From the NCBI GenBank assembly GCA_963707025.1, contig CAVPOM010000012.1:352001-416000 (forward strand): a DNA stretch of 64,000 nucleotides, given 5' to 3'. The position numbers and the translations under genes were made by a program. Below are positions 16,475-64,000 of the stretch, piece after piece. Numbering within the stretch: position 1 is the first letter of the stretch; each line of letters begins with the position of its first letter. The stretch comes from an uncultured Verrucomicrobiae bacterium. GTDB lineage: Bacteria > Verrucomicrobiota > Verrucomicrobiia > Limisphaerales > Palsa-1400. The notes under the pieces were generated by a model. The model was not told the DNA's origin. It searched no databases and saw only the letters and a list, made by a program, of their open reading frames with translations.

Positions 16475-19400
16475 ATGCGATATTCAATCCGAACAACCAA
16501 CCGATCCCTGGTTATTGGCGTCTTGACATTTGCTTTATTTGCGCTGGCGGCCACGTTTCGAGCGGAGGCTCAACCGGCGGTGACGATAACCCAGGGCCCC
16601 TCGGTGGCGATCACCAACGCCAATGGGTCCGTCAGTTACACGGTTAATATCGCGGACCCTGTTTTGGGAGTGGTTTCATTGGCGCCGGCCAGCATTCAAC
16701 TTAATGCGACCGGGACAGCGGCGGCGGCGGGCGTGGCGGTGACCGGGGCGGGCGGGAGCGCGACGAGCACGAATTTCGCGGTGACACTCTCCAGTTTGAG
16801 CGGCGACGGGACTCTGGGGATCATGGTGCTGGCCAATGCGGTGACGGACACGGCGAGCATGGGGAGTCCGGCCTCGACCAACAGCACCACCTTCATCGTG
16901 GACACGACCGCGCCGGTGGTGACGATAACCCAGGGCCCGTCGGTGGCGATCACCAACGCCAACGGGTCCGTCAGTTACACGGTTAATATCGCGGACCCCA
17001 ATTTGGGACCGGTGACCTTGGCGCCAGCCAGCATTCAAGTTAATGCGACCGGGACGGCGGCGGCGACGGGCGTGGTGGTGACCGGGGCGGGTGGGAGCGC
17101 GACGAGCACGAATTTCGCGGTGACACTCTCCAGTTTGAGCGGCGACGGGACTTTGGGGATCATGGTGCTGGCCAACGCGGTGACGGACACGGCGGGCAAT
17201 GGCAGTCTGGCCTCGACCAACAGCACCACCTTCATCGTGGACACGACCGCGCCGGTGGTGACGATAACCCAGGGCCCGTCGGTGGCGATCACCAACGCCA
17301 ACGGGTCCGTCAGTTACACGGTTAATATCACGGACCCCAATTTGGGACCGGTGGCCTTGGCGCCGGCCAGCATTCAAGTTAATGCGACCGGGACGGCGGC
17401 GGCGACGGGGGTGGCGGTGACCGGGGCGGGCGGGAGCGGGACGAGCACGAATTTCGCGGTGACACTCTCCAGTTTGAGCGGCGACGGGACTTTGGGGATC
17501 ACGGTGCTGGCCAACGCGGTGACGGACACGGCGGGCAATGGCAGTCTGGCCTCGACCAACAGCACCACCTTCATCGTGGACACGACCGCGCCGGTGGTGA
17601 CGATAACCCAGGGACCGTCGGTGGCGATCACCAACGCGAACGGGTCCGTCAGTTACACGGTTAATATCGCGGACCCCAGTTTGGGAACGGTGGCCTTGGC
17701 GCCGGGGAGCATTAAGGTTAATACAACCGGGACGGCGGCGGCGACGGGGGTGGCGGTGACCGGGGCGGGCGGGAGCGCGGCGAGCACGAATTTCGCGGTG
17801 ACACTCTCCAGTTTGAGCGGCAACGGGACTTTGGGGATCATGGTGCTGGCCAATGCGGTGACGGACACGGCGGGCAATGGCAGTCTGGCCTCGACCAACA
17901 GCACCGCCTTCATCGTGGACACGACCGCGCCGGTGGTGACGATAACCCAGGGACCGTCGGTGGCGATCACCAACGCGAACGGGTCCGTCAGTTACACGGT
18001 TAATATCGCGGACCCCAGTTTGGGAACGGTGGCCTTGGCGCCGGGGAGCATTAAGGTTAATACAACCGGGACGGCGGCGGCGACGGGGGTGGCGGTGACC
18101 GGGGCGGGCGGGAGCGCGGCGAGCACGAATTTCGCGGTGACACTCTCCAGTTTGAGCGGCAACGGGACTTTGGGGATCATGGTGCTGGCCAATGCGGTGA
18201 CGGACACGGCGGGCAATGGCAGTCTGGCCTCGACCAACAGCACCGCCTTCATCGTGGACACGACCGCGCCGGTGGTGACGATAACCCAGGGACCGTCGGT
18301 GGCGATCACCAACGCGAACGGGTCCGTCAGTTACACGGTTAATATCGCGGACCCCAGTTTGGGAACGGTAACCTTGGCGCCGGGGAACATTAAGGTTAAT
18401 ACAACCGGGACGGCGGCGGCGACGGGGGTGGCGGTGACCGGGGCGGGCGGGAGCGCGACGAGCACGAATTTCGCGGTGACACTCTCCAGTTTGAGCGGCA
18501 ACGGGACTCTGGGGATCATGGTGCTGGCCAATGCGGTGACGGACACGGCGGGCAATGGCAGTCTGGCCTCGACCAACAGCACCGCCTTCATCGTGGACAC
18601 GACCGCGCCGGTGGTGACGATAACCCAAGGCCCGTCGGTGGCGATCACCAACGCCAACGGGTTCGTCAGTTACACGGTTAATATCGCGGACCCCAGTTTG
18701 GGAACGGTGGCCTTGGCGCCGGGGAGCATTAAGGTTAATACAACCGGGACGGCGGCGGCGACGGGGGTGGCGGTGACCGGGGCGGGCGGGAGCGCGGCGA
18801 GCACGAATTTCGCGGTGACACTCTCCAGTTTGAGCGGCAACGGGACTTTGGGGATCATGGTGCTGGCCAATGCGGTGACGGACACGGCGGGCAACGGCAA
18901 TCTGGTCTCGACCAACAGCACCACCTTCATCGTGGACACGACCGCACCGGTGGTGACGATAACCCAAGGCCCGTCGGTGGCGATCACCAACGCCAATGGG
19001 TCCGTCAGTTACACGGTTAATATCGCGGACCCCAGTTTGGGAACGGTGACCTTGGCGCCGGGGAACATTAAGGTTAATACAACCGGGACGGCGGCGGCGG
19101 GCGTGGCGGTGACCGGGGCGGGTGGGAGCGGGACGAGCACGAATTTCGCGGTGACACTCTCCAGTTTGAGCGGCAACGGGACTTTGGGGATCATGGTGCT
19201 GGCCAATGCGGTGACGGACACGGCGGGCAATGGCAGTCTCGGCTCGACCAACAGCACCACCTTCATTGTGGACACCAACGCGCCGACGATTCAAATCAGT
19301 GCTCCGTCGCACCTTTATACCTCGTCCAATGTGGTCAGCTACACCGTGAGCTACTCCGATCCTCATTTGCTGACCACCACGTTGACGTCGGCGAACGTCA

Positions 19401-20839
19401 CGGTCAATCAACTCTCGGGGACGGCCCAAGGCACAGCGGTGGTTTTGGGCAGCGGCCCGGCATATACTGTGGCCGTGACCAACACCACCGGAAATGGGCA
19501 GTTGAGCATTACCATTGGCGCCGGCACGTCTTTGGACACGGCGGGCAATGCCAATCTGGCCACCAACAGCACGGCCTTTACGGTGGACAATATCAATCCC
19601 GCCGTCACGGTTGGTTTGCCGTCGGTGTCCCTCGCCAATGCCTCCGGCCAGGTGGGCTTTCAGGTGGATTACTACGACTTGAATTTTAGCACTGCGGCGC
19701 TGAAATCAAATGACGTGGTGGTCAGCGCCACCGGCACCGCCGCGGCCGGCAGCGTCACCGTGACCGGCGCCAGCAGCGGCGGACCGAGCACAAACTTTCT
19801 GGTCACACTGTCCGGCCTTACCGGCGACGGAACGCTGACCATCGCCGTCAACCCCGGGGTCGCTTCTGATTTGGCGGGGAATTTCGATGCGGGAGCGGCC
19901 TCGCCCACGAATTTTATACTTTACACGAACCCGCCGGCGGTGACCATCTCCGGTCCCAGCACCAACTTCGGCAATTCGGGCAGCCAGGTGACCTACACGG
20001 TGACGGTCAACGACCCCTATTTGATTGCACCCACGCTGGCCAGCAATGACATCGTCCAGGTTGCGGTGGGCAGCGCAAGGGCGACCAGTGTCACGGTGGC
20101 GAGTGGCGCCGGTTCAACGGCGACCAACGTCAACTTCACCGTCACTCTAGGCGGGTTGGTCGGGCAAGGCACACTCGGTTTCCGCCTGACCAACGGGTTT
20201 GCCTTGGACCTGGCCGGAAATGCCAACATCCAATCCACCAACAGCACCCCGTTTGCAGTGAGCGCCATTGCCCCGCAAATTGTGATAAGCGGCCCGTCTC
20301 CCGGCAAGACGACCAACGGCCCGGTGACTTACACGGTGAGTTATCGCTCCACCAATTCTTTCGTCAGCACGCTCAGCCTGGCCAACATCACCTTAAACCA
20401 GGCCGGCTCGGCCAACGGCACGCTGGTGCTGGCAGGCGCCTCCAATGCTTATACGCTGGTCATGACGAACATCAGCGGCACGGGCGCGCTGGGCATTTCC
20501 ATCGCGGCCGGCACGGCTTATGACACCAATGGAAATTATGCGCCCGCCGCCGGGCCAAGCGGGACGGTGGTGGTCCTCAGCGGCATTGGGGCGGCCGGGC
20601 AGGGGGCGGCCACCTTGGACATCCTGCCTCCGAGCGGCAATAGTGTAATTGTCACCCTCCACGGCATCGCCAGCGCCACCTACGTGGTGCAAGCGAACAC
20701 CAATTTGGCGAGCACGAACTGGTTGTCGGCCGGCACGACGACGTTGGACGGGTCTGGCAACGGCACATTGACCATATTGGGCGGCATTAACAGCAACCCT
20801 GCGGTCCCGGCGCAGTTTTACCGGGCGATTCTCCCCTAG
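16475..20839 (+). CDS. Secreted Ig-like tandem-repeat surface protein (1454 aa)
   Basis: Signal peptide (…ATFRAEA); repeated DTAGN…FIVDTTAPVVTI; C-terminal YVVQANTNL…NW…QFYRA tail. Confidence 0.9.
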   Translation: MRYSIRTTNRSLVIGVLTFALFALAATFRAEAQPAVTITQGPSVAITNANGSVSYTVNIADPVLGVVSLAPASIQLNATGTAAAAGVAVTGAGGSATSTNFAVTLSSLSGDGTLGIMVLANAVTDTASMGSPASTNSTTFIVDTTAPVVTITQGPSVAITNANGSVSYTVNIADPNLGPVTLAPASIQVNATGTAAATGVVVTGAGGSATSTNFAVTLSSLSGDGTLGIMVLANAVTDTAGNGSLASTNSTTFIVDTTAPVVTITQGPSVAITNANGSVSYTVNITDPNLGPVALAPASIQVNATGTAAATGVAVTGAGGSGTSTNFAVTLSSLSGDGTLGITVLANAVTDTAGNGSLASTNSTTFIVDTTAPVVTITQGPSVAITNANGSVSYTVNIADPSLGTVALAPGSIKVNTTGTAAATGVAVTGAGGSAASTNFAVTLSSLSGNGTLGIMVLANAVTDTAGNGSLASTNSTAFIVDTTAPVVTITQGPSVAITNANGSVSYTVNIADPSLGTVALAPGSIKVNTTGTAAATGVAVTGAGGSAASTNFAVTLSSLSGNGTLGIMVLANAVTDTAGNGSLASTNSTAFIVDTTAPVVTITQGPSVAITNANGSVSYTVNIADPSLGTVTLAPGNIKVNTTGTAAATGVAVTGAGGSATSTNFAVTLSSLSGNGTLGIMVLANAVTDTAGNGSLASTNSTAFIVDTTAPVVTITQGPSVAITNANGFVSYTVNIADPSLGTVALAPGSIKVNTTGTAAATGVAVTGAGGSAASTNFAVTLSSLSGNGTLGIMVLANAVTDTAGNGNLVSTNSTTFIVDTTAPVVTITQGPSVAITNANGSVSYTVNIADPSLGTVTLAPGNIKVNTTGTAAAGVAVTGAGGSGTSTNFAVTLSSLSGNGTLGIMVLANAVTDTAGNGSLGSTNSTTFIVDTNAPTIQISAPSHLYTSSNVVSYTVSYSDPHLLTTTLTSANVTVNQLSGTAQGTAVVLGSGPAYTVAVTNTTGNGQLSITIGAGTSLDTAGNANLATNSTAFTVDNINPAVTVGLPSVSLANASGQVGFQVDYYDLNFSTAALKSNDVVVSATGTAAAGSVTVTGASSGGPSTNFLVTLSGLTGDGTLTIAVNPGVASDLAGNFDAGAASPTNFILYTNPPAVTISGPSTNFGNSGSQVTYTVTVNDPYLIAPTLASNDIVQVAVGSARATSVTVASGAGSTATNVNFTVTLGGLVGQGTLGFRLTNGFALDLAGNANIQSTNSTPFAVSAIAPQIVISGPSPGKTTNGPVTYTVSYRSTNSFVSTLSLANITLNQAGSANGTLVLAGASNAYTLVMTNISGTGALGISIAAGTAYDTNGNYAPAAGPSGTVVVLSGIGAAGQGAATLDILPPSGNSVIVTLHGIASATYVVQANTNLASTNWLSAGTTTLDGSGNGTLTILGGINSNPAVPAQFYRAILP
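16580..19285 (+). repeat. 8 near-identical 339-bp (113-aa) intragenic tandem repeats, followed by about 4 divergent copies
   Basis: gtgacgataacc recurs at 16580, 16919, 17258 ... 18953. Confidence 0.95.
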
Positions 20840-20842: not shown

Positions 20843-21331
20843 ATGAATATATTATTCCGGTCTATAGCGCTGGCGGCGTTGGCCACGGCTTTAACCTCCG
20901 GCTGTGCTTCCGACAAGCTGCACCGTCCTGATTCCATCGCCATTGTGCCCAAGACCTCATTCTCCGTGCCGGTGGATCTGGTCTTCGTGTCCAAAGAGAA
21001 CTTCCAGGACATTATGGCTTATGATGTGGACAAATACTGGAGCCCCAATGATCCGGTCCGCAAGGCCGCCGATAAATTCGAGGTCACCGTTTCCGGCGGC
21101 AAGGCGATGCCCGCGGCACTGGTGATTGACGATGGCGTTTGGGCCAAATGGCATGGGAGCGGTGTGGCCCACGTGGTCGCCATTGCCGATCTCCGGGGCG
21201 ACGACTTCAAAGGATTGGGCCGCCTGGATACGCGGCGGGCTGATATTGACTTGAAGGATAAGTTTGTGGATAAAACCGTTGTCGTGGAAATCCAGGACAA
21301 AGCCGTAAAAATAATAACCCTCAAGAAATGA
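20843..21331 (+). CDS. Lipoprotein, probable divergent TssJ-like outer-membrane subunit
   Basis: LTSGC lipobox; 162 aa; VPVDLVFV…YW…VVAIAD pattern; only lipoprotein candidate in the T6SS locus. Confidence 0.55.
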   Translation: MNILFRSIALAALATALTSGCASDKLHRPDSIAIVPKTSFSVPVDLVFVSKENFQDIMAYDVDKYWSPNDPVRKAADKFEVTVSGGKAMPAALVIDDGVWAKWHGSGVAHVVAIADLRGDDFKGLGRLDTRRADIDLKDKFVDKTVVVEIQDKAVKIITLKK

Positions 21332-21421: not shown

Positions 21422-24400
21422 ATGAGCGATTATAGGGATTACGAGGTGTTCAAGCAGTTGGGCGGCGATATTCGCTCTGAAATCGTTTTGGCGCGAAAAC
21501 CGGGTTCCAAGCGTGTCGTTCTTCTCAAAACGCTGAAATTGGAGACGCTGTCGGCGGGCGTCGGCGCGTTTATGGAGCCCGGGTGCCCGCCTTCGAGGAG
21601 TTGGGCGGCGACGCCCGGATCCCTTACATCGAGGCGATCAAGGCCCAAGGCGCCGCCGCGCGCGTCAGCAACTCCCACATGGCGCCGATTCACGACCTGT
21701 TCCCCACGGAGGAAGGCGTCTGTTTTGCCACCGACTTCTATGAGAACGGTTCGCTCAGAAACAAGATTCGTTTAAACCAGCCCAACCACCGGGTGCTGCA
21801 AAACGTCATCGGCGGCATCCTGCATGGTTTGTCGTGCTTAAGATCGGTCGCCCATCGCGGGCACGGCAGCCTGCATACCGACAATGTTATGCTCGGCGGC
21901 GGTCCGGGAACGCCCCTGCGGGAATGTCCTGTCTTCCTGACCGATGTGGCTCCCATCACGGCGCAAAGCCCCGCGGAGATGGAGACGGAGGACCTTCATG
22001 CCGTCGGGCAAATCCTTTACCAGTTGGTCATGCGCAAGGTGGAAGACCGCAAGGAAGGTTTTCCCTTCCCGGTCCGCTCTTCGCCGGAATGGGACGGGCT
22101 GGGTGACAAGGACGGATTCTGGCTGCGCCTCTGCAACCGGTTGCTGGATCCCGACCTGGCGCCCGGCGCCGAATCGCCCGAAGCCCTGCTGCGGGAAATT
22201 GGCCGGCCCGCCTCGCGCAAGCCCATTCTGATTGCGGCAGGCCTGTTGCTCGCTGCGGCGGCCGGTATCGGGGTCTGGCTGGTCATCCCCCGCAAGACCG
22301 TTATTCTGCCGCCTCATTTGACCATTGTCTCGATGACCCCAAGCGACGGGAGAGTAACAAATGGGCAGACGATGACCTGGCAATTCAAGCTCGATCATCC
22401 GGGTGGGCCGATTTCCGCGCCGCAATTGCATCAAGAATTGAAGCCGGATGCGGATGGTCTTTACACCTTTGCCACCACTCCGAGCCTTGGCGCGCCGGCC
22501 GGGCGCACCAACATCTTGATTTCAGATGGCGGGGCGCTCTCGACCAATCTGGCCTTCGAGATTGTTCCGCCGCCGTCGCCTTACCTGAGCATGGACTCGA
22601 CGATTCCGGGTGACAGGAGAGTGATGATTGGGCAGACAATGACGTGGAAATTCAGGGTCGCGAATACGGCCGGGCCGATTTCCGCGCCGCAATTGCATAT
22701 AGAATTGAAGCCGGATGCGAATGGTCTTTACACGCTGACCAATGTTCCGAGTCCTGGCACGCCCACGGGCCGCTCCTACATCTTGATTTCGGATGGAGGG
22801 ACGCTCTCGACCAATCTAGCCTTCGAGATTGTTTCGCCGCCGCCGCCTTACCTGGCCATAGTCTCGATGGTTCCGAATGACGGGAGAGTGATCATTGGGC
22901 AGACAATGACGTGGAAATTCAGGGTCGCGAATACGGCCGGGACGATTGTCGCGCCGCAATTGAATCAGCAACTGCAGCCAGATGCGAACGGTGTTTACAC
23001 GCTTGCCAACACTCCGAGTCCTGGCGCGCTTGTGGGGCGCACCAACATCTTGATTTCGGATGGAGGGACGCTCTCGACCAACCTAGCCTTCGAGATTGTT
23101 TCGCCGCCTCCGCCTTACCTGGCCATAGTCTCGATGGTTCCGAGTGACGGGAGAGTGATGATTGGGCAGACGATGACCTGGAAGTTCAAGGTCGCGAATA
23201 CGGCCGGGACGATTGTCGCGCCGCAATTGAATCAGCAATTGCGCCCAGATGCGAACGGTGTTTACACGCTTACCAATGCTCCAAGCCCTGGCACGCCCAC
23301 GGGCCGCTCCTACATCTTGATTTCGGATGGAGGGACGCTCTCGACCAATCTAGCCTTCGAGATTGTTTCGCGGCCGGCGTCTTACCTGACCGTAGTCTCG
23401 ATGGTTCCGAGTGACGGGAGAGTGATGGTTGGGCAGACGATGACCTGGAAGTTCAGGGTTGCGAATACGGCCGGGACGATTGTCGCGCCGCAATTGAATC
23501 AGCAATTGCAGCCAGATGCGAACGGTGTTTACACGCTTACCAATGCTCCAAGCCCTGGCGCGCCTGTGGGGCGCACCAGCATCTTGATTTCGGATGGAGG
23601 GACGCTCTCGACCAATCTAGCCTTCGAGATAGTTTCGCGGCCGGCGTCTTACCTGACCATAGTCTCGATGGTTCCGAGTGACGGGAGAGTGATGGTTGGG
23701 CAGACGATGACCTGGAAGTTCAGGGTTGCGAATACGGCCGGGACGATTGTCGCGCCGCAATTGAATCAGCAATTGCAGCCAGATGCGAACGGTGTTTACA
23801 CGCTTGCCAACACTCCGAGCCCTGGCGCGCCTGTGGGGCGCACCAGCATCTTGATTTCGGATGGAGGAACGCTCTCGACCAATCTAGCCTTCGAGATTGT
23901 TTCGCGGCCGGCGTCTTACCTGACCATAGACTCGATGGTTCCGAGTGACAGGAGAGTGATGATTGGGCAGACGATGACGTGGAAATTCAGGGTCGCGAAT
24001 ACGGTCGGGGCGATTTCCGCGCCGCAATTGCATATAGAATTGAAGCCGGATGCGAACGGTCTTTACACCCTGACCAATGCTCCGAGTCCCGGCACGCCCA
24101 CGGGCCGTTCCTACATCTTGATTTCGGATGGAGGGACGTTCTCGACCAATCTAGCCTTCGAGATAGTTCGGCCGCCGCCGCCCGCCCTGACCGTCCAATC
24201 CAGCAACCCAGCCAACGCCGAAGCCGGAACGCTGATTACTTGGATTTTGTCGGTTGACGTCGGCCTCTTTCCCGAGCGTCCGGACTGCTCGGCCAAATCC
24301 TCCAATCCCGAACTGATTCCCGATCAGAGTCTGACCGCCAATTTGGCCCCGGCGGGCAATGGGAAATACACATTAACTGTGACGGCCCAATCCAGCAAAG

Positions 24401-26334
24401 GAACGAACGGCTCCGGCCAAATTGTCATTCAGGCGAATGTTCCGGGAAGTGAAACCGCGACGACAAACCTGGCTTATCATATTGTGCCTGTTCCGCTGCC
24501 GGAATTGAGACTAATGAATCCATTGCCGCTGGTCCTGGCAGCCGATTCCAACTCGATCCCGCTGCGCTTCGCGTTGAGCGATGGGAGGGTGTCTGCCCAA
24601 GAGCTGGGCTTCTCCGTGGATCTCAGTCCCAGGAACATTCTTGATCAGTCCAACCAAATTGACGGCTCCATCCGGTGGGTGACGCTCACGCGCCTGCCCG
24701 GAACCAACGGCTTAGTCACCATCAAAGCCATTGTTATTGCGGGCGACCGAACCAACAGTGCCAGCTATAAACTTACGGTGGAGGCGGTCAAGCCGCCGGC
24801 CCTGGTGCTGGCCGGCTCCGCCAACACCGATCTGGATGTGAATGCCGCCAGCGAGATGGCGCTCATCCCATGCAGCACACCGGATTCCAAACAGCTCCAC
24901 ATGGAGATTCTGGGAATAAAAATTATGCCGGCAAATTCGCCGCTTCTGGACACCAACGGCATCAAGTTCGAGCCTGGGCAGGCGCCGGACACCAACCGCG
25001 GCTTCATTGTGTTGCAGCCCAACCGCGGCTATGTCGGCACAGCCACGGTGACCGTCCGCGCCACCGCGGCCGGCGCGACTCCGGCCCAATTTGCCATCGG
25101 GTTGACCGTCGGCGGTGACATTCACCCCCCCAAAATCAAACTTTCCGCAGACGCTATGACGCTGGAACAAGACCAGACCAACCAAATTGGCGTGACGGTG
25201 GACGACGAGTATTCGCCAGCGGGCTTATCGTGGGAGGTCTTATCCCCTCCGCAGAGCTTCGTGTCTGTCAAGCCGGACATGCCGCAGCGCATCGTGACCC
25301 TCACCGGCCAGGCGCCGGGAAAGGCGACCGTTGCCGTCCGCGCGACCGCCCGCAACGGCAGCAACAGCACCGCCAATTTGACGGTCAATGTTCTTCCCGC
25401 CGAGCCGCCTCAATTCCCCATTTTTCCCGACAGCCCGGTCCAGTACCCCAAGGGCCTCCCGGTCAAGATTCAGATTGCCGACAATGCGACGCCGCCGGGG
25501 GCCATCCGCCTGGACTTCCCCGGATTATCCTGGGAGAAGACGAATTGGACCCGGACTACAAATGTGGGGGCCAACCATGTCGAGCTGACGCTCAACCTGA
25601 GCGGACCGCCGGAGGAGGACGCAACCGGGCAGACTTTTGAAATCACCGCCACCGATTTGGCCGGCCATGCCGCCACAAAACGGCTGGAGTTTGTCTTCCC
25701 TCCACGATCGAATTTGTACACCAATGACGCGACGGGCATGGTCCTGGCCTGGGTGAAGGGCTTGCCGGAGACAACCGGCGCCGCCTGGCCGGTGGACGGC
25801 CGCAGCGGCGGTGGCTGGGTCGGCAAGTACGAGGTGATGCAAGGGCAGTTCGCAAAGGTGCTGGGGACCAATCCCAGCGCGAACCAGGGCGACCCCAATT
25901 TTCCGGTGGAGAACATGAGCCTGGCGCAGGCCAGCGAGTTTTGCGATAAATTGACTGCGGGAGACCCCAACCTCCGAGGCTGGCGTTATGCCTTGCCCTC
26001 TGAGCAGCAATGGCTCTGGTTTGCCGGGAAGCAGCCGCCCATGAACGCCAACGGGAATTTCACCAATTTCGCCAATTACCAGATGAGCGGTTTCGGCAAG
26101 CCCATTGCCGTTGGCTCGCTGGAGTCCAACAGGTTCGGCCTTTACGATGTCTTTGGCAATGTCGGTGAATTGACCGGAACACGCAATCCGGGCAACGCCA
26201 AATATCAAGCTTACAAGGGAGGGAGTTTTAGACAAACCAGCCCCGCCTTGGCTCCAGAGTGGCCTGGATACACCGATAAACCCGAAAACAACATCGGCTT
26301 CCGCGTCGTCCTGGTGCCGGTGGCGGGGAAATAG
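21422..26334 (+). CDS. Pseudokinase-TM-89-aa repeats-Ig-like-FGE/SUMF1 fusion (about 1637 aa; one frameshift near 21580)
   Basis: YEVFKQLGG…VVLLK (from 21422), HGSLHTDN, TDVA, EDLHAVGQILYQL; TM ILIAAGLLLAAAAGIGVWLV; C-terminal GKYEV, FPVENMS, LPSEQQW, NRFGLYDVFGNVGE, KGGSF, GFRVV. Confidence 0.85.
22315..24180 (+). repeat. 7 tandem 267-bp (89-aa) intragenic repeats
   Basis: GQTMTW…ISDGG.LSTNLAFEIV occurs 7 times; 267-bp period (22330, 22597…). Confidence 0.92.
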
Positions 26335-26622
26335 CCCGGCGCCTGTCAAGGCAACCACTTGACAATGCCAGGACCGTGCCGGAGCGCGGCCGTCCGTGGC
26401 CTTCGGCCGCGGCCCGGCTCACCGGGGCGGAGGCCGTCGTCGCCTTGGTTTTTTGGGGCCTGCTGTCCCGGTATTTTTTTTAACTTTTTCCTTGCATTTT
26501 TTGGTGTACAGCGTCAAAACGGCCTTCGTTGTAATGAGAGACTGGCTGCGTAAGTGTATTGCGCAAGCGCGCCAGGGGGGCGGTTTGGATTTGGCCGGTG
26601 AATTTGGACGGCAGAAAAATGT

Positions 26623-50293: not shown

Positions 50294-50781
50294 CCCCTTT
50301 CGAGAAACTGCAGCCTTGCCTGCTGGATCGTTTGAGCGACGAGGCGCCGGGTCATTTGCAAGAGAGCCGCAGCGAACGGGTCATTTCGCTGATACGTTAC
50401 AAGGAATCGGTCATGCGGGACTTGCTCTGGCTGTTCAACACGACCGCCTATCCGCCCGACTCGGAGATTTATGAGTTTCCCGCCGCCGCCTCTTCGGTCA
50501 TGAATTATGGCTGCCGCAACTTGTGCGGCATGACCCTGGGCACGATTGATCTGGTGGAATGGGAACGCCATCTGCTGACGGTCGTGCGCAATTTTGAGCC
50601 GCGCATCATTCCGCAGACCGCGTCGGTGCATGCCTCGGTTGACCAATGGAACCGGCATCCCTTGACCTTCGATATCCGCGGCGAATTGTGGGCCAAACCC
50701 ATCCCCGAGCATATTTGGTTGAAAACGGCGGTTGACCTGGATACCGGCCGATTCTTGTTTGGGGACCGGCTGCATGAATAG
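50281..50781 (+). CDS. tssE: T6SS baseplate subunit TssE (gp25-like)
   Basis: LQPCLLDRL, SVMRDL.WLFNT, SVMNYG, FEPRI. Confidence 0.92.
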   Translation: MPDLTPFEKLQPCLLDRLSDEAPGHLQESRSERVISLIRYKESVMRDLLWLFNTTAYPPDSEIYEFPAAASSVMNYGCRNLCGMTLGTIDLVEWERHLLTVVRNFEPRIIPQTASVHASVDQWNRHPLTFDIRGELWAKPIPEHIWLKTAVDLDTGRFLFGDRLHE

Positions 50782-54868: not shown

Positions 54869-57583
54869 ATGGCAGAAATTCAACGCGCAACCCTCTTCGG
54901 CAAACTCAACAGCGTCGGCTACAAATCGGCGGAATCGGCCACCGTGTTTTGCAAGCTGCGGGGCAATCCTTATGTCGAGCTGGTCCACTGGCTGCACCAG
55001 ATTCTTCAACTCCAGGATTCGGATTTTCATCATGTCATCCGCTTTTTTTCCCTGGACCCTTCGCGTCTGGCCGCCGATCTGACGGCGGCGCTGGATCGTT
55101 TGCCCCGCGGGGCCACCTCCATCCAGGACTTCTCCCCGCACCTGGAGGAGGCGATCGAACGGGGCTGGGTTTACGCCACCCTGCTCTTTGGCGAGGCCCA
55201 GGTGCGGACCGGCCATGTGATTTATGCCTTGCTGGAAACGCCTTCGGTCAAAGGTGTTTTTCTCGGTCTTTCACGGGAGCTGGCCAAAATCAAGGCCGAA
55301 CGGCTGGCCGATGAATTCGCCGCGGTCACGGCCGGCTCGCCGGAGGAATCCATGGCCGCCTCCGACGGCTCGGGCTTGAGCGCCGGGGCCGCGCCGGGGG
55401 ATGTGGCCGGGGCGCTGGCGCCGGCGGCCATGGGCAAACAGGAGGCCCTGGCCCGGTTTTCCGTTGACTTGACAGAAAAGGCGCGGCAGGGGGAGATTGA
55501 TCCGATCGTCGGGCGGGACGAGGAAATCCGCCAGTTGGTGGATGTGCTGATGCGCCGCCGCCAGAACAACCCCATCCTGACCGGCGAGGCGGGAGTGGGC
55601 AAGACGGCGGTGGTGGACGGCTTCGCCCTGCGCATCGCGGCCGGGGATGTGCCGCCGGCGCTGAAGGGCGTCTCGATCCGCAGTTTGGACACCGGCGCCC
55701 TCCAAGCCGGAGCCAGCATGAAGGGGGAATTCGAGCAACGGTTGCGCCAGGTCATAGAAGAGGCCCAGAAATCGCCCAAGCCGGTCATACTTTTTATTGA
55801 TGAAGTTCATGTGCTGCTCGGGGCCGGCGGCTCCGGCGACGCGGCCAATCTGCTCAAGCCGGCCCTGGCGCGCGGCACCTTGCGCACCATTGCCGCCACC
55901 ACCTGGGACGAATACAAAAAACACATTGAGAAAGACCCCGCCCTCACGCGGCGATTCCAAGTGGTCAAAGTGGAGGAACCCTCCGAAGCCAAAACGGTGC
56001 TGATGATGCGGGGCATCGTGGCGCCCTTTGAAAAGCACCACCGCGTGCAGATTCTCGATGAAGCGATCGAGGCGGCGGTCAAGCTTTCCCATCGTTACAT
56101 CCCCTCCCGCCAGCTTCCCGACAAGGCGGTGAGTCTGATTGACACCGCCTCCGCGCGCGTGGCGGTCAGCCAGCACGCCGTGCCGGCGGCCGTGGATGAC
56201 AACCGGCGGCGCATCCAGGCCTTGGAGACCGAGCAGGGAATTCTACAGCGGGAAACGGCGGTCGGCTCCGACCACGCCGCCCGCCTGGCGGGCCTGGCCG
56301 AGGCACTCGCCCGCGAGCGGACCCAGCTCGCCGAGCTGGAAAAGCGATGGAACGAGGAAAAGGGGCTGGTCAGTCAAATCCTGGAATTACGCGCGCAACT
56401 TACCGGCAAAGACAGCCCGGCGGATTCGCCCGCAGCCGCGGCCGGGACCGGGGCCGCGGCGGGCGGTGACAAAGAGAGCGCGCCCGGCGCCACCGGCGAG
56501 ACGAAGCTGGGGCAATTGCGCCAATGCCAGGAGAAGCTGGCCGCCTTTCAAGGGGAAGCGCCGCTGATTTTTCCCAGCGTGGACCAAAACGCCATCGCGG
56601 CGGTGGTGGCCGATTGGACCGGAATTCCCGTGGGGCGCATGGTCAAAAACGAAATCGAGCAAGTGCTCAAGCTGGCCGACGTGCTGGAACGGCGCGTCAT
56701 CGGCCAGCGGCACGCCTTGGAAACGATCGCCCGCCGCATCCAAACCAGCCGGGCGCGTCTGGACAATCCCAGCAAGCCGGTTGGGGTCTTCATGCTGGTC
56801 GGCCCCAGCGGCACGGGCAAGACGGAAACCGCCCTGACCTTGGCGGAAGCCCTTTACGGCGGCGAACACAACCTGATCACGATCAACATGAGTGAATTTC
56901 AGGAAGCCCACACCGTCAGCACCCTGAAAGGCTCGCCGCCGGGTTATGTCGGCTACGGCGAAGGCGGGGTGCTGACCGAAGCCGTCCGCCGCCGCCCCTA
57001 CAGCGTGGTGTTGCTGGATGAAGTGGAAAAAGCGCATCCCGACGTTCACGAGATCTTCTTCCAGGTCTTTGACAAGGGCCACATGGAAGACGCGGAGGGC
57101 CGGGACATTGACTTCAAAAACACCATCATTATCTTGACTAGCAACGCCGCGCAGGACATCATTATCAACATGTGCAAAGACCCCGACCTGATGCCCAACG
57201 CCGAGGGTATGGAAAAAGCCATGCGCGGCCCTCTGACCAAGGTGTTTCCCGACGCCCTGCTCAACCGCCTGGTCGTGGTGCCCTATTACCCGATCAGCAA
57301 GGAAATGCTCAAACGGATCATCCAACTCAACTTAAAGCGCGTGGAAAAGCGGGTCCTGGAGAACCACGAAGTTCCCTTCACCTACGAGGCCAGCGTGCCG
57401 GAACTGATTGCCAAGCGTTGCAGCGAGCTGGAGCGCGGCGCGCGCATGGTGGATGCGCTCATCACCAACACCCTCCTGCCGGAGATCGGCCGCGAATTTC
57501 TCAACCGCCTCTTCACGGGCGGCGAGATCAAGCGGGTGCATGTCAATGTGAAGGAGGACAATTTCGCGTTTGCCTTTGAGTGA
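54869..57583 (+). CDS. clpV: T6SS ATPase ClpV (TssH)
   Basis: [54 protein letters not shown]. Confidence 0.97.
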
Positions 57584-57589: not shown

Positions 57590-58450
57590 ATGAGCGATAG
57601 CACCGATGTGTTAGTCAGTTCGCTGAAGCCGTCCTTGGAGAGTTTCGAAGGCCGTTCGCCTTGGCTGTATCTGGACTTTCTGGGACACTTGACCATTGGC
57701 ATCGGCCACTTGGTTCACAAAAAGGGAGGCACACCGCAAGCGCTGGAATCAGGTATAAAACTGGTTTGGTCTTACGGAATGACCCAGATTCGCGCGGATG
57801 CGGGATTTGCCAAAGAATATCTGAGTGTTTGCCGCTCGGCGCCTCCCGGGCCGGTGACAGGCGAGTCACATGCCGCTGTTTACAACCGAACGATGAAAGC
57901 CGCGATTACGCATCTTGGTTCAATAGCATCGTATGGCTCTCTCTTAACGCGGATTGGAGAGAGCACCGGCGCGATAGCGGCTGCTGCTGCGGATAATCCC
58001 CTCGTGCCTGGAGTTTGGGGCTACCCTCTTCCGGCCTCGACGTGCGATCAACAGAATATTAGGGTATTGATTCAGGAGGCGCAAAGCATCGAGCAACTGC
58101 CCGTCGGTTGGAAGCTGCCGGTAGATTATTTCGAATGTTTCAATAGTTTTAAGCTGACTGCTCCGGCGGTTGATAAATTGTTGCAGGACGATATCGGCAA
58201 AAAGATTGTCGAAGTCAAAGGTGAGCCCAGCTTTAAGGAATTTGATGGTTTTCCTGTCCCTGCGCAAGTTGCCGTGCTTGATTTATCATTCCAATATGGC
58301 GCCTGCGGTTTGTCTCATCAGACGGCTTTCGCTGCCGCAGTTAAAAATAAGGAATGGCTGGCGGCTGAGAAAGCATGTCCGACTAATGATGCTCAAGCCG
58401 ACCGCACCAAATTTAGAAAGAACAATCTCCATCAGGCCGCGAAACCGTAA
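57590..58450 (+). CDS. Phage/T4-type (GH24-like) lysozyme-domain protein, candidate T6SS effector
   Basis: FEGRSPWLYLDFLGHLTIGIGHL fits E-x8-D-x5-T; C-terminal FP..AQVAVLDLSFQYG…AAVKNKEW..A; visibly more AT-rich than neighbours. Confidence 0.75.
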   Translation: MSDSTDVLVSSLKPSLESFEGRSPWLYLDFLGHLTIGIGHLVHKKGGTPQALESGIKLVWSYGMTQIRADAGFAKEYLSVCRSAPPGPVTGESHAAVYNRTMKAAITHLGSIASYGSLLTRIGESTGAIAAAAADNPLVPGVWGYPLPASTCDQQNIRVLIQEAQSIEQLPVGWKLPVDYFECFNSFKLTAPAVDKLLQDDIGKKIVEVKGEPSFKEFDGFPVPAQVAVLDLSFQYGACGLSHQTAFAAAVKNKEWLAAEKACPTNDAQADRTKFRKNNLHQAAKP

Positions 58451-58464: not shown

Positions 58465-60541
58465 ATGCCCGCCACCCAAACACAACGCAACGTAGCCATC
58501 GGCACCGCGCTGGGCGATGATGTGCTGCTCGTCAAATCGGTTGCCATCACGGAACGGCTCGGACGGCTGTTTCAAATCGAGGCGGACCTGGCCAGCGAAC
58601 AGGGATCGGTCAACTTTGACGATATTCTGGGTAAAAACGCCACCATTCGCCTGGAGCTGCCCAATCAGAAAACCCGCTATTTCAACGGCAACGTCAGCCG
58701 CTTTGTGCAGACGCGCATGGAAGGCCGCTACGCCCATTATCGGGCCACGCTGGTTCCCTGGCTCTGGTTCCTCACCCGCACGGCCGATTGCCGCATCTTC
58801 CAGAGCATGAAGGTGCCGGACATTGTCAAACAGGTCTTCCGCGACCAGGGTTTCGCCGATGTTCGCGACGCGCTGACCGGCAGTTATTTGACCTGGGATT
58901 ACTGCGTGCAATACCGCGAGACGGACTTTAATTTTGTCAGCCGCCTCATGGAGCAGGAAGGCATCTACTATTTCTTCGAGCACGAAAACGGCAAGCACAC
59001 CCTCGTCCTGGCCGACGACAAATCCGCCCACAAGCCGTTCCCGGATTACGCCACCATCAACTATCGCGCCGAAGTCACCGGGGTGCGCACGGAGGAATAC
59101 ATTTCCGACTGGATTTTGCAAAAGGAGGTGCAAACCGGCGTCTATAGCCTGAACGATTTCAATTTTACCACGCCGAAAAGTTCCTTGCTGGCCAAGTCGC
59201 AAGTGAGCCAGGCTCATGCCCAATCCAACTTCGAAATCTACGATTACCCTGGTGAATACGACGACCAAGGGGAGGGGCAAAGCCTTTACTCCAAGCTCCG
59301 CATCCAGGAACACCAGGCGCAACACGAAGTCGCCCAGGGCCACGGCAATGCCCGCGGCCTGGCCAGCGGCGCCATCTTCACCCTCGACCTCTTTCCGCGC
59401 AGCGATCAGAACCGCGATTACCTGATCACCGAAACCTACATCCACATCACGGGCGACATCTACGAGGGCCGCGGCGGCGGCGGCCGCGGCGAGTTTTACA
59501 CTTGCGCCTTCAGCGCCATACCGTCGGATGTTCCCTATCGCCCCCCCCGGCTGACGCCCAAACCGCTCATCCAAGGGCCGCAAACCGCCATGGTGGTCGG
59601 AACCAAAGGGGAGGAAATAATGACCGATAAATACGGCCGGGTCAAGCTCCAGTTCCACTGGGACCGCTATAGCAAAGGGGACGAGAACTCCTCCTGTTGG
59701 GTGAGGGTTTCGCAGGCCTGGGCCGGGAAGAACTGGGGAGCCATCTACATTCCGCGCATCGGCCAGGAAGTCATCGTGGAATTCCTCGAGGGGGACCCCG
59801 ACCAGCCGATCATCACCGGCCGGGTTTACAACGCCGTGGCCATGCCGCCCTATGCTTTGCCGGGAGAAATGACTAAGAGGTACTGTCAAGACCAATTCCA
59901 CCAAAGGCGGGCAGGGCTTCAATGAAATCCGCTTTGAGGACAAGAAGGGGGCGGAACAAATCTTCATCCACGGCGAGAAGAACCAGGACATTCGCATCAA
60001 GAGCGATTGCTTCGAATGGATTGGCAACAACCGCCATTTGGTGGTCACGAAGGACCAACTCGAGCACGTCGAAAACAACCGCAATGAAACGGTGGATGCC
60101 GACCACAAGGAGCAAATCGGCAAGGACAGGCATTTGAACGTCACGGGCAAAGAGGCGGTGGCGATTGGCGGCAGCAAATCCCTCACCGTGGGGGGCGACG
60201 TCATTGAGGTGTTCAAAGGCAACCATTCCGAGCAGGTCACCAGCGATTATTATCTCAAGGCCGACAACATCGTCATCGAAGGCATGACCAACGTGACGAT
60301 CAAGGTGGGGCAGTCCTACATTGCCATTGAGGCGGGGGGCATCTCCATCGGCACCAGTGGAACGATGGAGTTGAAGGACAGCGGCGGCTTGACCATCCAA
60401 TCCGACGCCACCGCCACCATCAAGTCCAGCGGAGCGCTCTCGGTCCAATCGCAGGCCTCGGCCGAGCTCAAGGCGCCGCAAACCAGCGTCAAGGGCGATG
60501 CCATGACGACCATCAAAGGCGGCGCCGTCATGATCAACTGA
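58465..60541 (+). CDS. vgrG: T6SS spike protein VgrG (about 691 aa; frameshift at ~59880)
   Basis: YCVQYRETDFNFVSRLMEQEGIYYFF, GPQTA.VVG, DKYGRVK.QFHWDR, PRIGQEVIVEFLEGDPDQP; the +1 frame continues NEIRFEDKKGAEQIFIH…GAVMIN*. Confidence 0.95.
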
Positions 60542-60560: not shown

Positions 60561-60965
60561 ATGCCCAGTCCAAAAAGTGGAAACGCCGGTTCGGCGGTCT
60601 CGCCCGCCGCTCCCGATGCGGCCGTGGACGCCGACGACGCGGTGGCCGGCGACGTTGACCAGGCCCAGGGCGCCTCGGCCACCAAGGCGGCGAGCAGCCA
60701 GGACTCCGTCAAGGTCAAGCCCTACAAACCGCCGCAAACCAAGGAGGAAAAAGCGCAAAAGCCAAGCTGGATCGAGATCGTGATGGTGGATGAACAAGGG
60801 AACCCGGTGCCAAGCCTGGCCTACAGCATCACCCTGCCCGACGGCGAAACCGTGGCCGAGGGCACCCTGGACGACAAGGGCTTTGCCCGCGTGGACGGCA
60901 TCGAACCAGGAACGTGCCAAATCACGTTTCCCGACCTGGACAAGGAAGCATGGGAGAAGGCCTGA
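60561..60965 (+). CDS. Small VgrG-associated protein with a C-terminal transthyretin-like beta-sandwich
   Basis: Ala/Asp-rich N-terminus, then WIEIVMVDEQGNPV…Y.ITLPDG…GTLDDKG.ARVDGIEPG.CQITFP. Confidence 0.7.
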   Translation: MPSPKSGNAGSAVSPAAPDAAVDADDAVAGDVDQAQGASATKAASSQDSVKVKPYKPPQTKEEKAQKPSWIEIVMVDEQGNPVPSLAYSITLPDGETVAEGTLDDKGFARVDGIEPGTCQITFPDLDKEAWEKA

Positions 60966-61123
60966 CAACGCAGAATCTGGTTTGTAGGGAACCCTCGTGC
61001 CCGTCCCGCCCCCGCCCATAGGCGCGCCGGTGAAGTCCGAAAACGCGTCAGGAAAAATGCTTGCAAAAAGCCTGAAATGGGCCAAAATCAGCCGCAGATT
61101 AGTCGCAGACGCTCTTGTTTTTT

Positions 61124-61867
61124 ATGTCTGAAGACTACGAAGTTCAGGAAGGTGACTGCATCAGCAGCATCGCCCACGAGCATGGTTTCCTCTGGGAAAC
61201 TTTGTGGAACCATTCTGCCAACTCAGGGCTGAACCAGCAGAGGAAGGACCCGAACATCTTAATGGAGGGCGATATTGTCCACATCCCCGACAAGACTAAA
61301 AAACAAGAAAGCGGCGCCACGGAAGCGAAGCACAAGTTCAAGCTCAAGGGTGTGCCAGCCAAGCTCAAGCTCAAACTGATGCGTCCCAAGGCTGGCAGCA
61401 GCCCGCCGGACGCGCCCGCGGCGGATGGTGGCGGCGGGGGTTCCCCCTCGAATGGGGCGGATCCAGATTACAAGGCACCCAAGAACGAGGAAGAACCGAT
61501 GAAGGCAGCGCCCTACGTGTTGGAGGTGGACGGCGCGCCCGTGGCCCAGGGCACCACGGATGGCGATGGTTGCGTGGAGATTCCGATCTTGCCCGACGCG
61601 CGCGCCGGGAAGTTGATCATCAACAAGGGCAGCCCCGACGAGAAAACCATCACGCTTGACCTTGGCGGCATGGACCCAATTGATGAGGTTGCCGGTGTGC
61701 GCAAGCGTCTTGGAAACCTCGGCTATTTCTGCGATGCCGAAGGCCCGGCGGATACATCGGATCTTAAGGACGCGCTGCGAGCATTCCAGGAGCGGAACTC
61801 TCTGGACATCACCGGCAATATCGATGATGCGACCAAAAACAAGCTCAAGGAAAGCCACGGCAGCTAA
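61124..61867 (+). CDS. LysM plus peptidoglycan-binding domain protein
   Basis: YEVQEGDCISSIA…DPNILMEGDIVHIP (LysM); GVRKRLGNLGY…ALRAFQERNSLDITGNIDDAT (PG_binding_1). Confidence 0.85.
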   Translation: MSEDYEVQEGDCISSIAHEHGFLWETLWNHSANSGLNQQRKDPNILMEGDIVHIPDKTKKQESGATEAKHKFKLKGVPAKLKLKLMRPKAGSSPPDAPAADGGGGGSPSNGADPDYKAPKNEEEPMKAAPYVLEVDGAPVAQGTTDGDGCVEIPILPDARAGKLIINKGSPDEKTITLDLGGMDPIDEVAGVRKRLGNLGYFCDAEGPADTSDLKDALRAFQERNSLDITGNIDDATKNKLKESHGS

Positions 61868-61895: not shown

Positions 61896-63758
61896 ATGCC
61901 TGTCAGCAAAATTAAGATTTCGTTCGTGAGCGTCGGCGTCGCCGATACCGCTGATATCTGGGGCGACGATACGTGGGGATTCTCGGCCAGCATCAACGGC
62001 GACTTCGTGGGCAATGTCATGGATGAGTTCACCGCCAGGGATAAGGGAATTATTGTCCTCCCCGCCAAATGGAGCGCGGAAATCGATGTCAGCCAACAAA
62101 CCAAGTTCATCTACGGTGTGAAAGTGAAGTTTGCCGTCATAAAGTTGGATGGTGTTGACAGTCTTGGAGAGGTCAGCTACGAGTTCAAATACCCTTTTGC
62201 CAGGGGCAAAACGATCTCCATCGATTCGCCCGTGCAGCACGGCCTTTTTGCGGATCACCAATATTACACCCTCCAAGTGAGATTGGATGTGCTGGAGGTG
62301 AAGTCATTTAAACCCAAATTCGGCTCGTGGCAAAACTTCGTGAAAGCCAGCCGCCAGAACAAAAAGAGCAAGACTTTTACGACGGTCTCAGTCAATCAGG
62401 TGCTTCCCCGCGTGGAGGTTTGCCCGGTGGTTCCCAGCCCGGAGTGGCCATCCATGATGCCCAAGCGGCCCGATATCGCCATTAAATCCGGACTGTGGCC
62501 CGGCTTGGATACGCCCCAGAACGCACCCGTCACGCTTTGGCCGCTGCCGCCTCTCAACTCGACCTATAATCCTTCATTAATCCCGATCATCCCCAAGACG
62601 GACCCGGACTTCGCAAAGAAAGTGGCCAAGCTGGCGGTCACCTATTTCGAGCCGGGCGACCTCGATTTGAGCAAGCTGACTTGGAAGGTAAAGACCGGAC
62701 CGTCGGAAATCGTCGGCAGCAACAAGGGCGTCAAGATTAAACTCCTGGGGACGGGGAGTGGCGCCAGCGATCAGTTGACCGAAGTCGAGGTCCGCTGGGA
62801 TGGCCGGAATGGCCCATTGCTCGCCACCTTCCGGGCCTGGGTCGGGAACATCAAGACGGCCATGTACCGCATCAACCTCATCAATGGTCCCACCCCCGCC
62901 ACTAGCGTGGCGTTCCCGCCGCAGGATTACAAAAACCAAGTCGAGATGGCGCGCTGCCTCTACTGGCAGGCAGGCATCGCCCTGGTCCCCGATACCGACA
63001 CGACTTGTTGGGATGGCGCCACCAGGACGGATCCTTCTACTGGTGCGGCGTTGCCCCCGGGAGTGTTTATTGTGCCCGTAACCGACCCAACCTTGACAGT
63101 CAATGTGAATAATTTCGCGCCGACGCCCGCCTCGCGCTTGAACTGCCGGCCCGGCGTTCTGCACGCCGTTTACGTTTGCTCCACGCCCGCCCCCATCCGT
63201 GCGGCGGCCACCGATATACAGGGTGTTGATGGACAGGACTATGCACTCGGCGGCACTCCAAGCTCTTCGTGGGGCCTGCCCAGCGGCGTGCCCCCCGACG
63301 ACCCGGCCGGAACCCTCACGATGAAGACGTTCGCCTCAAGCAATCGTCCATCCAAAAAAGCCGTGGGAGACGATGCTTACGTGACGGCGCGGCACGCCGT
63401 TGATCCGAGTTTCACCGCCGCTTCGATGGCAAAGATCTACGCAGCGGTGTTGCCTTCCGCCTGGACAACCGTTTTCGGGTCGGGCACCGACCCCAATGCC
63501 GGCGTCAACGTAGGTCACGAATTGGGCCATGTCCTTGGCCTCATGCACCGCGGCCACACCAATCAGAGTAAGAAAGGTCCGTTTGGTTCCGATGATAAGA
63601 TCGACTGTATGGGCATGGACGGCGTGGCGCGCGGACATCCATGGCACGAGAACATCATGACCTACGGCTACGCGGGAAATACCGGCGGCGTCACGCGCGC
63701 GCAGGACATTGACCTCCTCCAAACGGCGGTCATCCGCAAACACCCTGCCTGCAAGTGA
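61896..63758 (+). CDS. Putative zinc metalloprotease (metzincin), candidate effector
   Basis: HELGHVLGLMH (HExxHxxGxxH) and ENIMTY Met-turn; no signal peptide. Confidence 0.8.
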   Translation: MPVSKIKISFVSVGVADTADIWGDDTWGFSASINGDFVGNVMDEFTARDKGIIVLPAKWSAEIDVSQQTKFIYGVKVKFAVIKLDGVDSLGEVSYEFKYPFARGKTISIDSPVQHGLFADHQYYTLQVRLDVLEVKSFKPKFGSWQNFVKASRQNKKSKTFTTVSVNQVLPRVEVCPVVPSPEWPSMMPKRPDIAIKSGLWPGLDTPQNAPVTLWPLPPLNSTYNPSLIPIIPKTDPDFAKKVAKLAVTYFEPGDLDLSKLTWKVKTGPSEIVGSNKGVKIKLLGTGSGASDQLTEVEVRWDGRNGPLLATFRAWVGNIKTAMYRINLINGPTPATSVAFPPQDYKNQVEMARCLYWQAGIALVPDTDTTCWDGATRTDPSTGAALPPGVFIVPVTDPTLTVNVNNFAPTPASRLNCRPGVLHAVYVCSTPAPIRAAATDIQGVDGQDYALGGTPSSSWGLPSGVPPDDPAGTLTMKTFASSNRPSKKAVGDDAYVTARHAVDPSFTAASMAKIYAAVLPSAWTTVFGSGTDPNAGVNVGHELGHVLGLMHRGHTNQSKKGPFGSDDKIDCMGMDGVARGHPWHENIMTYGYAGNTGGVTRAQDIDLLQTAVIRKHPACK

Positions 63759-63767: not shown

Positions 63768-64000
63768 ATGCCTAAGGACGCTTCCATTTTTCAAACCTCG
63801 AGAGATCCAAAGTTGCTCGTGGACACCGCGGTTGAATTCGCCGCCAGCGAGCAGGCGTCCGACCAGGTGACCCTGGCCGGGGTGCTCAACTCGCCTGACT
63901 TTTTGCAACGTCTGAACACTCCGCACGAGTACGACACCCTGATCACCAAGCAGTTGAGAGTGGCCAGGGTGATCAGGGCTTTGCGCGACAGTCCGCACGA
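63768..64000 (+). CDS. Hypothetical protein, truncated by window end; possible immunity partner
   Basis: ATG 9 nt after the protease stop; open frame MPKDASIFQTSRDPKLLVDTAVEFAASEQ… runs to the edge. Confidence 0.65.
   Translation, partial: MPKDASIFQTSRDPKLLVDTAVEFAASEQASDQVTLAGVLNSPDFLQRLNTPHEYDTLITKQLRVARVIRALRDSPH

Follow-up and report, generated by a model that had tools for sequence, protein, structure and literature searches.

Does a type VI secretion system (T6SS) whose genes are interleaved with adhesin, two-partner secretion (TPS) and kinase-like membrane genes represent a new kind of secretion machine, and are these additional genes coupled to its firing? The question is raised by a stretch of 64,000 nucleotides, hereafter called the window, from an uncultured Verrucomicrobiae bacterium (assembly GCA_963707025.1, contig CAVPOM010000012.1, positions 352,001 to 416,000), which the initial annotation had read as an undescribed T6SS coupling cell contact to firing. 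The results of our analysis indicate that the system is a variant of the known T6SS with a testable model of activation free of phosphorylation, not a new type. There is hardly any doubt that the locus is a T6SS; the whole mechanism proposed below, namely an intact, single-copy T6SS related to group 3 (i3) with phosphorylation-free, contact-based activation plus an exported adhesin, is a proposal that we consider evenly poised.

The secretion system and its core

The tail, baseplate and ATPase core is complete, comprising TssA, B, C, Hcp, E, F, G, K, ClpV and VgrG, with PAAR just past the window, and the inner-membrane components TssL and TssM are also present. Pfam and NCBIfam scans identified tssK, L, M, A, B, C, hcp, tagJ (ImpE), E, F, G, clpV and vgrG, all on the + strand; together with repeat and domain evidence, they bear out the co-oriented block of genes that had been proposed, in the order proposed.

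36215..37582, +, tssK (TIGR03353, 209.7 bits, over the cut-off)
37615..38406, +, tssL, without OmpA domain (DotU, E 1.6e-18)
38434..42295, +, tssM, with a divergent periplasmic part and a frameshift at ~39990-40010 (IcmF-related_N match)
45599..46665, +, tssA of ImpA_N type, with breaks at ~46510 and 46632 and an approximate end (Pfam)
46795..47304, +, tssB (Pfam/NCBIfam)
47320..48819, +, tssC (Pfam/NCBIfam, PDB match, trees)
48921..49421, +, hcp (Pfam/NCBIfam)
49475..50293, +, tagJ (ImpE; PF07024, E 3.6e-46)
50281..50781, +, tssE (Pfam/NCBIfam)
50774..52663, +, tssF (Pfam/NCBIfam)
52627..54838, +, tssG, with two insertions (265 aa, and ~120 aa with CxxC motifs) and a break at ~54600
54869..57583, +, clpV (tssH; TIGR03345, 1233 bits, over the cut-off)
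58465..60541, +, vgrG, split at ~59879 (Pfam/NCBIfam)

Among solved structures, the TssC of the window is closest to 5n8n (675.8 bits; the next chain scores 473.5, VipB 335 and IglB 238), which is the TssB1C1 sheath of the Pseudomonas aeruginosa H1-T6SS, belonging to group 3 (PMC5807055). In a quick tree of 80 TssC rows, the window lies on a long unresolved branch inside a clade of 74 rows (SH-aLRT 99) that also contains Rhizobium symbiotic-plasmid, Burkholderia, roseobacter, planctomycete and verrucomicrobial systems; references from Ralstonia, Azospirillum, E. coli, Campylobacter, Vibrio and R. etli NXC12 fall outside this clade, and rows of the same order as the window cluster with named Verrucomicrobiota. 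The tree was built without H1 itself and without SecReT6 reference sets, and it leaves out 29 redundant named loci, rows with fewer than 380 aligned residues or with a stop, G013 and Cronobacter; the subtype labels of its references are presumed. When TssC, TssF and ClpV are taken together (FastTree, 34 rows), the window falls in a clade of eight rows (support 97) that consists of genomes of the same phylum plus one contig labelled Bifidobacteriaceae, apart from proteobacterial and planctomycete rows. (The T6SS of L040, labelled uncultured Bifidobacteriaceae, nests among Verrucomicrobiota, and this is probably a binning error.)

The gene order A-B-C-hcp-tagJ-E-F-G-clpV is common among the 80 named loci, proteobacterial and planctomycete ones included, and together with tagJ we take it to be linked to subtype i3. 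Since TssC is closest to H1 among solved structures and the gene order is shared with proteobacterial and planctomycete loci, the core is probably not of a new type; judged from its sequences, it is group-3 (i3)-like and seems to form a lineage-specific Verrucomicrobiota branch of a known group. The notion of an undescribed system is thus not supported for the core: the phylogeny does yield a separate Verrucomicrobiota subclade, but one that probably lies within a known group. A Verrucomicrobiota variant of the T6SS is nevertheless upheld, for the accessory order recurs across families and in other orders of the phylum and the accessory set is unlike that of P. aeruginosa H1. Relatives have full-length TssM, and the C-terminal parts of TssM match IcmF_C in 0 of 20 cases.

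Two features of the core genes may be added. The insertions in TssG (52966-53760 and 54253-54600) were not found in relatives; the 265-aa insertion has weak matches at three other sites of the source genome, and the second is rich in CxxC motifs and resembles a zinc ribbon. In addition, divergent second sheath-like genes occur in T6SS loci of relatives (L180:7753-9552, L111:7024-8835, L219:14919-16874 and L200:11056-12462), that of L180 being a TssB-TssC fusion by NCBIfam.

The block outlined by the initial annotation lies inside the window, but the locus is wider. Its 5' edge is a divergent, conserved pseudokinase gene, P651 (14142-16097), located before the gene for an immunoglobulin-like (Ig) repeat protein, and its 3' end, with a DUF6931 gene and a PAAR gene, lies ~10.8 kb beyond the window. 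From the Ig-repeat gene through tssK the intergenic gaps measure, in order, 3, 90, 288, 33, 95 and 2 bp. The source genome (G000; 6.96 Mb, 88% complete) was found to contain no other T6SS and no other TpsB.

The gene identities proposed earlier stand, but six genes are split by seven single-base frameshifts: the membrane kinase (~21580), tssM (~40000), the tagF fusion (~43745), tssA (~46510 and 46632), tssG (~54600) and vgrG (59879). Were these breaks real, the T6SS would be decaying in the source strain, with tssM, tssA, tssG, vgrG and both fusions disrupted. Their density is in line with decay, with seven over ~46 kb of locus against 6 over the 72.3 kb aligned outside it, as are the long branch of TssC and the failure to find the conserved lipoprotein of the locus (see below) in any of the 5 other genomes of the genus. 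Yet every break is a single-base shift at which homology to single-ORF relatives carries on in the next frame, the 6 frame changes outside the locus hit 4 of 52 genes tested, and short-read contigs from a near-identical strain (run X1, in which 20 of 77 compared pieces are at least 99% alike to the source genome) have one base fewer at 46632 and 59879. We therefore consider decay improbable and, given the two breaks missing from the X1 contigs and the frame changes in other genes, assembly error likelier: the frameshifts are probably for the most part assembly errors, and the locus intact. It weighs against intactness that the independent contigs cover 2 of the 7 breaks, with one contig each at depth 2; X1 may moreover be the source sample.

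Kinase-like proteins and the phosphorylation pathway

Of 401 genomes belonging to the order, 24, among them the source genome, were found to contain TssK, and the surroundings of all 24 were examined. The accessory order P651 / lipoprotein-membrane pseudokinase-export slot-Fha-C-tssK-L-M-TagF fusion-tssA is conserved. The upstream set of the initial annotation (Ig-repeat protein, lipoprotein, kinase-FGE fusion, tpsA-tpsB and Fha-C-like gene) is confirmed in the window, the Fha-C-like member itself being without family match, and its recurrence holds for the order lipoprotein-pseudokinase-slot-fha-tssKLM-tagF; it does not hold for the Ig-repeat gene, not found in the loci of relatives examined, and TPS also occurs without T6SS. 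The genes of the putative regulatory module are as follows.

14142..16097, -, P651, a soluble kinase-fold protein of ~651 aa (pseudokinase; AlphaFold 2 (AF2) model, fold alignment)
20843..21331, +, conserved lipoprotein, candidate stand-in for TssJ (lipobox)
21422..26334, +, fusion of a PpkA-like pseudokinase, a transmembrane segment (TM), 8 repeats, Ig and FGE (TagR-like), frameshift at ~21580 (profile; FGE E 6.6e-12)
35367..36212, +, Fha/TagH-like protein without FHA domain (T6SS_FHA_C weak in the family)
42292..45593, +, TagF-like-TM-Ig-FGE fusion, split at ~43745 (TagF_N weak)

Of the two kinase-like families, the membrane fusion had been recognised and P651 missed. P651 has no Pfam or NCBIfam match, and a sequence-profile search of the PDB returned nothing significant, but its family is large, with 425 cluster representatives matching at E up to 1e-30. 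An AF2 model based on an alignment of 142 sequences reaches a predicted local distance difference test score (pLDDT) of 92.6 (an earlier model from 6 sequences had a pLDDT of 46, and its Foldseek search was uninformative). With an exhaustive structure aligner, the top rows against kinase domains are tied near Z 17, the IRAK3 pseudokinase among the comparisons giving Z 17.2 with a root-mean-square deviation of 3.8 over 267 aligned residues; Foldseek with the good model returned nothing at E up to 0.001. The column that, by motif register, would correspond to the catalytic Asp is Asn in 117 of the 142 sequences, and neither a conserved beta-3 Lys nor the DFG Asp was seen in this alignment. Among 400 genomes sampled across the phylum, 6 were found to carry P651. 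Outside the order it lies in T6SS loci, directly before the lipoprotein, in 5 of 6 cases and near a kinase-like gene only in the sixth, while a metagenome contig carries P651-lipoprotein-kinase-fha-tssK-L-M in one run; the nearest Atlas cluster is mostly from Planctomycetota.

The N-terminal family of the membrane fusion matches protein kinases by profile (best E 9.6e-07). At the position of the catalytic Asp, 7 of its 9 members have Asn or Ser (the loop in the window reads HGS), and neither glycine loop nor DFG was seen. Both kinase-like families thus have the kinase fold with catalytic residues lost. The repeats of the fusion measure 87-89 aa each, and its periplasmic end consists in relatives of PEGA and FGE, PEGA or TPR. 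Because the FGE domain of TagR, the activator of P. aeruginosa PpkA, is modelled to bind PpkA (PMC13713981), the kinase-FGE protein looks like a fusion of PpkA and TagR.

Canonically, Fha is phosphorylated by PpkA, dephosphorylated by PppA and sequestered by TagF (PMC13584744). Counterparts of Fha and TagF can be proposed here. An FHA domain is present in 0 of 16 members of the Fha-like family, of which 7, not including that of the window, match T6SS_FHA_C weakly. The TagF-like domain matches TagF_N in 2 of 12 members (best E 0.02) and gave nothing significant in the profile search of the PDB; its FGE extension is confirmed in four relatives. No phosphatase family (PppA) was found among the ORFs scanned in the loci of the source genome and of G178, and no TagST-type family among the scanned locus ORFs. 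The usual phosphorylation switch of the T6SS therefore seems, as far as these sequence families indicate, to be replaced by dead kinases.

Several observations weigh against this interpretation. The catalytic Asp is retained in 2 of 9 membrane kinases, G568 and G785 have no membrane kinase within the region examined, and several TagF-like proteins are without the TM/FGE extension, others being TPR-type or short. The locus of G462, from another class, has true, separate FHA proteins. Finally, the assignments of TagF, Fha and TssJ are based on weak or absent family matches. For TssJ the candidate is the lipoprotein, in which the Gly-Cys of the lipobox is invariant (9 of 9); 0 of 57 family members match TssJ/SciN, the profile search of the PDB gave no significant match, and a search for a proteobacterial TssJ as comparator returned none. 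The Atlas lead for this protein is IglE_N, at 0.89, and a metagenome scan with close lipoprotein orthologues yielded only 2 loci, both distant.

From the gene parts and their conservation, which are directly observed, we infer the sensing, the binding partners and the coupling of contact to firing as follows. The accessory module would descend from the PpkA/TagR/Fha/TagF pathway and, since the parts of the pathway are kept and catalysis is lost, would act through protein contacts instead of phosphorylation. The periplasmic FGE ends of the two inner-membrane fusions (TPR or PEGA in relatives) may sense the state of the envelope or attachment. Their pseudokinase and TagF-like domains on the cytoplasmic side, acting together with soluble P651, would then free the FHA-less Fha protein or bring it to TssL/M-TssK, and so determine where assembly is placed. 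The lipoprotein may take the role of TssJ, and target cells or surfaces would be kept in place for the time needed to fire by the exported TpsA or, in its stead, the alternative secreted protein described below.

The export slot and its coupling to the T6SS

The last step of this mechanism depends on the surface proteins of the locus, listed here with a possible transcription signal.

16475..20839, +, Ig-repeat surface protein with a signal peptide-like N-terminus and a C-terminal 'FYR' domain (repeats)
26453..26482, +, hairpin plus T-run resembling a terminator, within the 288-bp gap upstream of tpsA
26623..33486, +, TpsA, 2287 aa, adhesin-like, with 13 repeats spaced 94-96 aa (TPS domain E 7.5e-14)
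33520..35271, +, TpsB transporter of ShlB/FhaC type (ShlB E 3.5e-22)

TpsA carries an N-terminal TPS domain and stands beside an Omp85-type TpsB, the arrangement of two-partner secretion (type Vb). A large TpsA with a TPS domain adjoining a competition system could also be a CdiA-type toxin of contact-dependent inhibition and thus a second weapon beside the T6SS, but this we regard as very unlikely: TpsA has no toxin or pre-toxin Pfam match, no + ORF of at least 100 aa lies between tpsA, tpsB and fha, and the gene order is tpsA then tpsB.

The position beside fha/tssK, which we call the export slot, is variable. It holds TPS in 9 of the 24 loci (G000, G337, G013, G123, G199, G210, G313, G374 and, divergent, G226); in 9 others it holds an unrelated pair or, where a contig ends, the second half of this pair (G178, G132, G299, G307, G309, G217, G275, G261 and G128); the slot is cut by a contig edge in G147 and G136 (2 of 24). 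In G806, which belongs to the same family as the window, the locus is complete and the slot is filled by the alternative pair. In this pair a predicted outer-membrane barrel of ~385 aa, whose C-terminal Phe is barrel-like, precedes a large secreted protein with BNR, Ig or HYR matches; the barrel has no family match, nor anything significant in the profile search of the PDB. The two may form a dedicated export pair (barrel examples are L117:15662-16804, L124:2357-3511 and L185:3768-4982), and in some of the secreted proteins the terminal motif resembles the 'FYR' C-terminal domain of Verrucomicrobia.

The main rival to the proposed coupling accepts the pseudokinase T6SS as real and holds that TpsA-TpsB and the Ig-repeat protein are general adhesins, which share locus or regulon with it because of a surface lifestyle and are mechanically uncoupled from it. 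We hold this to be possible, if less than probable. Strong TpsB (E below 1e-25) occurs in 11 of 24 TssK-positive genomes versus 29 of 377 others, so that TpsB is no stranger to genomes without TssK. The closest TPS pair (G388, of the same family; TpsB 55-58%) has no T6SS gene within 40 kb, embedded and stand-alone TpsB are intermixed in a tree of 16 rows, and four loci (G126, G383, G025 and G085; 4 of 24) have neither pair in the slot. The terminator-like site preceding tpsA also speaks for uncoupling and may split the block into two transcripts; such sites are not enriched (19 versus 21.0 in shuffles), and a promoter scan was likewise near shuffle level.

On the other side stands the alternative pair, unrelated to TPS, that fills the same position in 9 of 24 loci and in G806. 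Its barrel is found in 8 of 24 TssK-positive genomes versus 4 of 377 others, with a kinase gene adjoining the barrel in 2 of those 4, and no genome carries both TPS and alternative barrel. Even after rearrangement TPS still adjoins tssA or the kinase, as in G226 and in G025, where lipoprotein, kinase, TpsA and TpsB lie together on a contig other than that of its T6SS. Outside the order, 4 of the 80 named loci, all from Phycisphaerales, have TpsA-like genes upstream of tssA, with the TPS domain confirmed for L037. The mutual exclusion in the slot may, on the other hand, reflect one displacement, because the genomes are kin and several of those with the alternative slot cluster on the TssC tree, which again tells against coupling.

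The Ig-repeat gene likewise weighs against tight coupling. The protein has 1454 aa with 8 repeats of 113 aa, and its homologues carry Big_3_3/Big_12, but no homologue of the gene was found in any locus of relatives examined; in the window it lies between P651 and the lipoprotein, which are immediate divergent neighbours in G337, G299 and G815. Its C-terminal motif is common to 43 other ORFs of the genome. One sign of recurrence, from database records, is an apparent Ig-repeat orthologue (P0235) on the same 11,015-bp NCBI contig as a 59% orthologue of the lipoprotein (P0197). The motif itself is a domain of ~70 aa with F[YF]R (window 20600-20839) that ends 44 ORFs of the source genome, the Ig-repeat gene included; the copy in the window has no Pfam match and looks like a phylum-specific C-terminal sorting domain.

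A broader generalisation would make Verrucomicrobiota, and possibly Planctomycetota, the bearers of a distinct T6SS branch, in which the PpkA/TagR/Fha/TagF switch would have turned into a phosphorylation-free relay of two pseudokinases and a TagF fusion, physically linked to an interchangeable exported tether (TpsA or the substrate of the alternative barrel), adhesion itself triggering firing; this we consider doubtful.

Other variations of these loci were seen in relatives. G096 has TpsA-TpsB-fha-tssL-tssM-tagF (L260:12299-20000), where the interval from fha to tssL is too short for tssK. In many relatives tssA is followed by one or two methyltransferase genes (L118:10564-12090 and 17766-19325; also L126, L136 and L196), of which the window has none. 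The T6SS loci of G199 (L130:1244-18762) and G559 (L220:15401-19368) contain, on the opposite strand, series of large genes that are in part repetitive.

Comparison with known systems and flanking genes

The likeness to H1-T6SS extends beyond the closeness of TssC and the presence of tagJ, in that the locus has a kinase-like membrane protein, an FGE (TagR-like) domain and Fha-like and TagF-like genes, as the TagQRST-PpkA-PppA-Fha1-TagF pathway does. It differs from H1 in that the kinase is degenerate and fused to FGE, the TagF-like domain is fused to TM-Ig-FGE, Fha is without FHA, an additional soluble pseudokinase is present and no PppA or TagST-type family is found among scanned ORFs, besides the absence of a recognisable TssJ, the divergent C-terminus of TssM, the embedded TPS and the placement in a Verrucomicrobiota subclade. 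The assertion that characterised T6SSs do not normally embed surface modules holds in so far as this accessory set is unlike H1, but a link with an adhesin has a precedent in TasL of Vibrio fischeri T6SS2, a large surface protein that provides the cell-cell contact for killing (PMC9040878). The locus shares with that system a large T6SS-associated surface protein as a candidate for such contact; whereas TasL is a putative lipoprotein, the candidate here is TpsA with its own TpsB or, in relatives, the unrelated barrel and secreted protein.

Periplasmic accessory factors, TslA/TagM1, have been proposed to place T6SS assembly at contact sites (PMC13584744); compared by description, the proteins here differ in being inner-membrane fusions with cytoplasmic pseudokinase or TagF-like domains. 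A membrane pseudokinase in a contact-killing secretion system is also known from T7SSb, where YukC/EssB serves as assembly platform (10.1101/2025.01.24.634720), although the machines are unrelated and FHA domains, which YukC binds in YukB, are missing from the Fha-like protein here.

No published description of this architecture was found in a search that most subscription papers and all supplements fell outside. A 2026 review of accessory factors makes no mention of pseudokinase, two-partner, Verrucomicrob, Planctomyc or FGE, and the accessible parts of PMC13373197, PMC3482391 and 10.64898/2026.01.08.698421 contain nothing specific to it.

The locus provides a concrete set of Verrucomicrobiota T6SS genes, including a naturally occurring fusion of PpkA-TagR type, in agreement with the recent TagR-PpkA model, and three families without Pfam or NCBIfam match (P651, the lipoprotein and the alternative barrel). 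To our knowledge, nearly all that is known of T6SS regulation comes from Proteobacteria and Bacteroidota. A review raises the question whether new T6SS architectures exist in other phyla (PMC8632748). If the pseudokinase relay is true, T6SS placement would be controllable without phosphorylation, and the sensing and holding of targets by the T6SS would be open to tests by single deletions.

Towards the 3' end of the window lie candidate effector genes.

57590..58450, +, lysozyme-like protein, candidate effector or wall-remodelling factor (Phage_lysozyme weak, E 0.01)
60561..61867, +, small beta-sandwich gene plus PG_binding_1 gene (the pair recurs twice past the window)
61896..63758, +, candidate effector with an HExxH motif and no family match

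In G178 a Pesticin-like gene lies between clpV and vgrG. The effector region continues downstream (L001:1769-12761, equivalent to G000:C12:415768-426763) with two more beta-sandwich/PG-binding pairs, several unknown genes, DUF6931 and PAAR; after the PAAR region there follow, on the minus strand, a probable insertion sequence and then a nonribosomal peptide synthetase/polyketide synthase cluster, both labelled from reading of the translations. On the 5' side, the window contains an integrase (rve) transposase ORF (567-1795), a TPR protein (1978-4161) and a MoxR AAA-DUF58-transglutaminase operon (9283-13881) that ends near the 3' end of P651.

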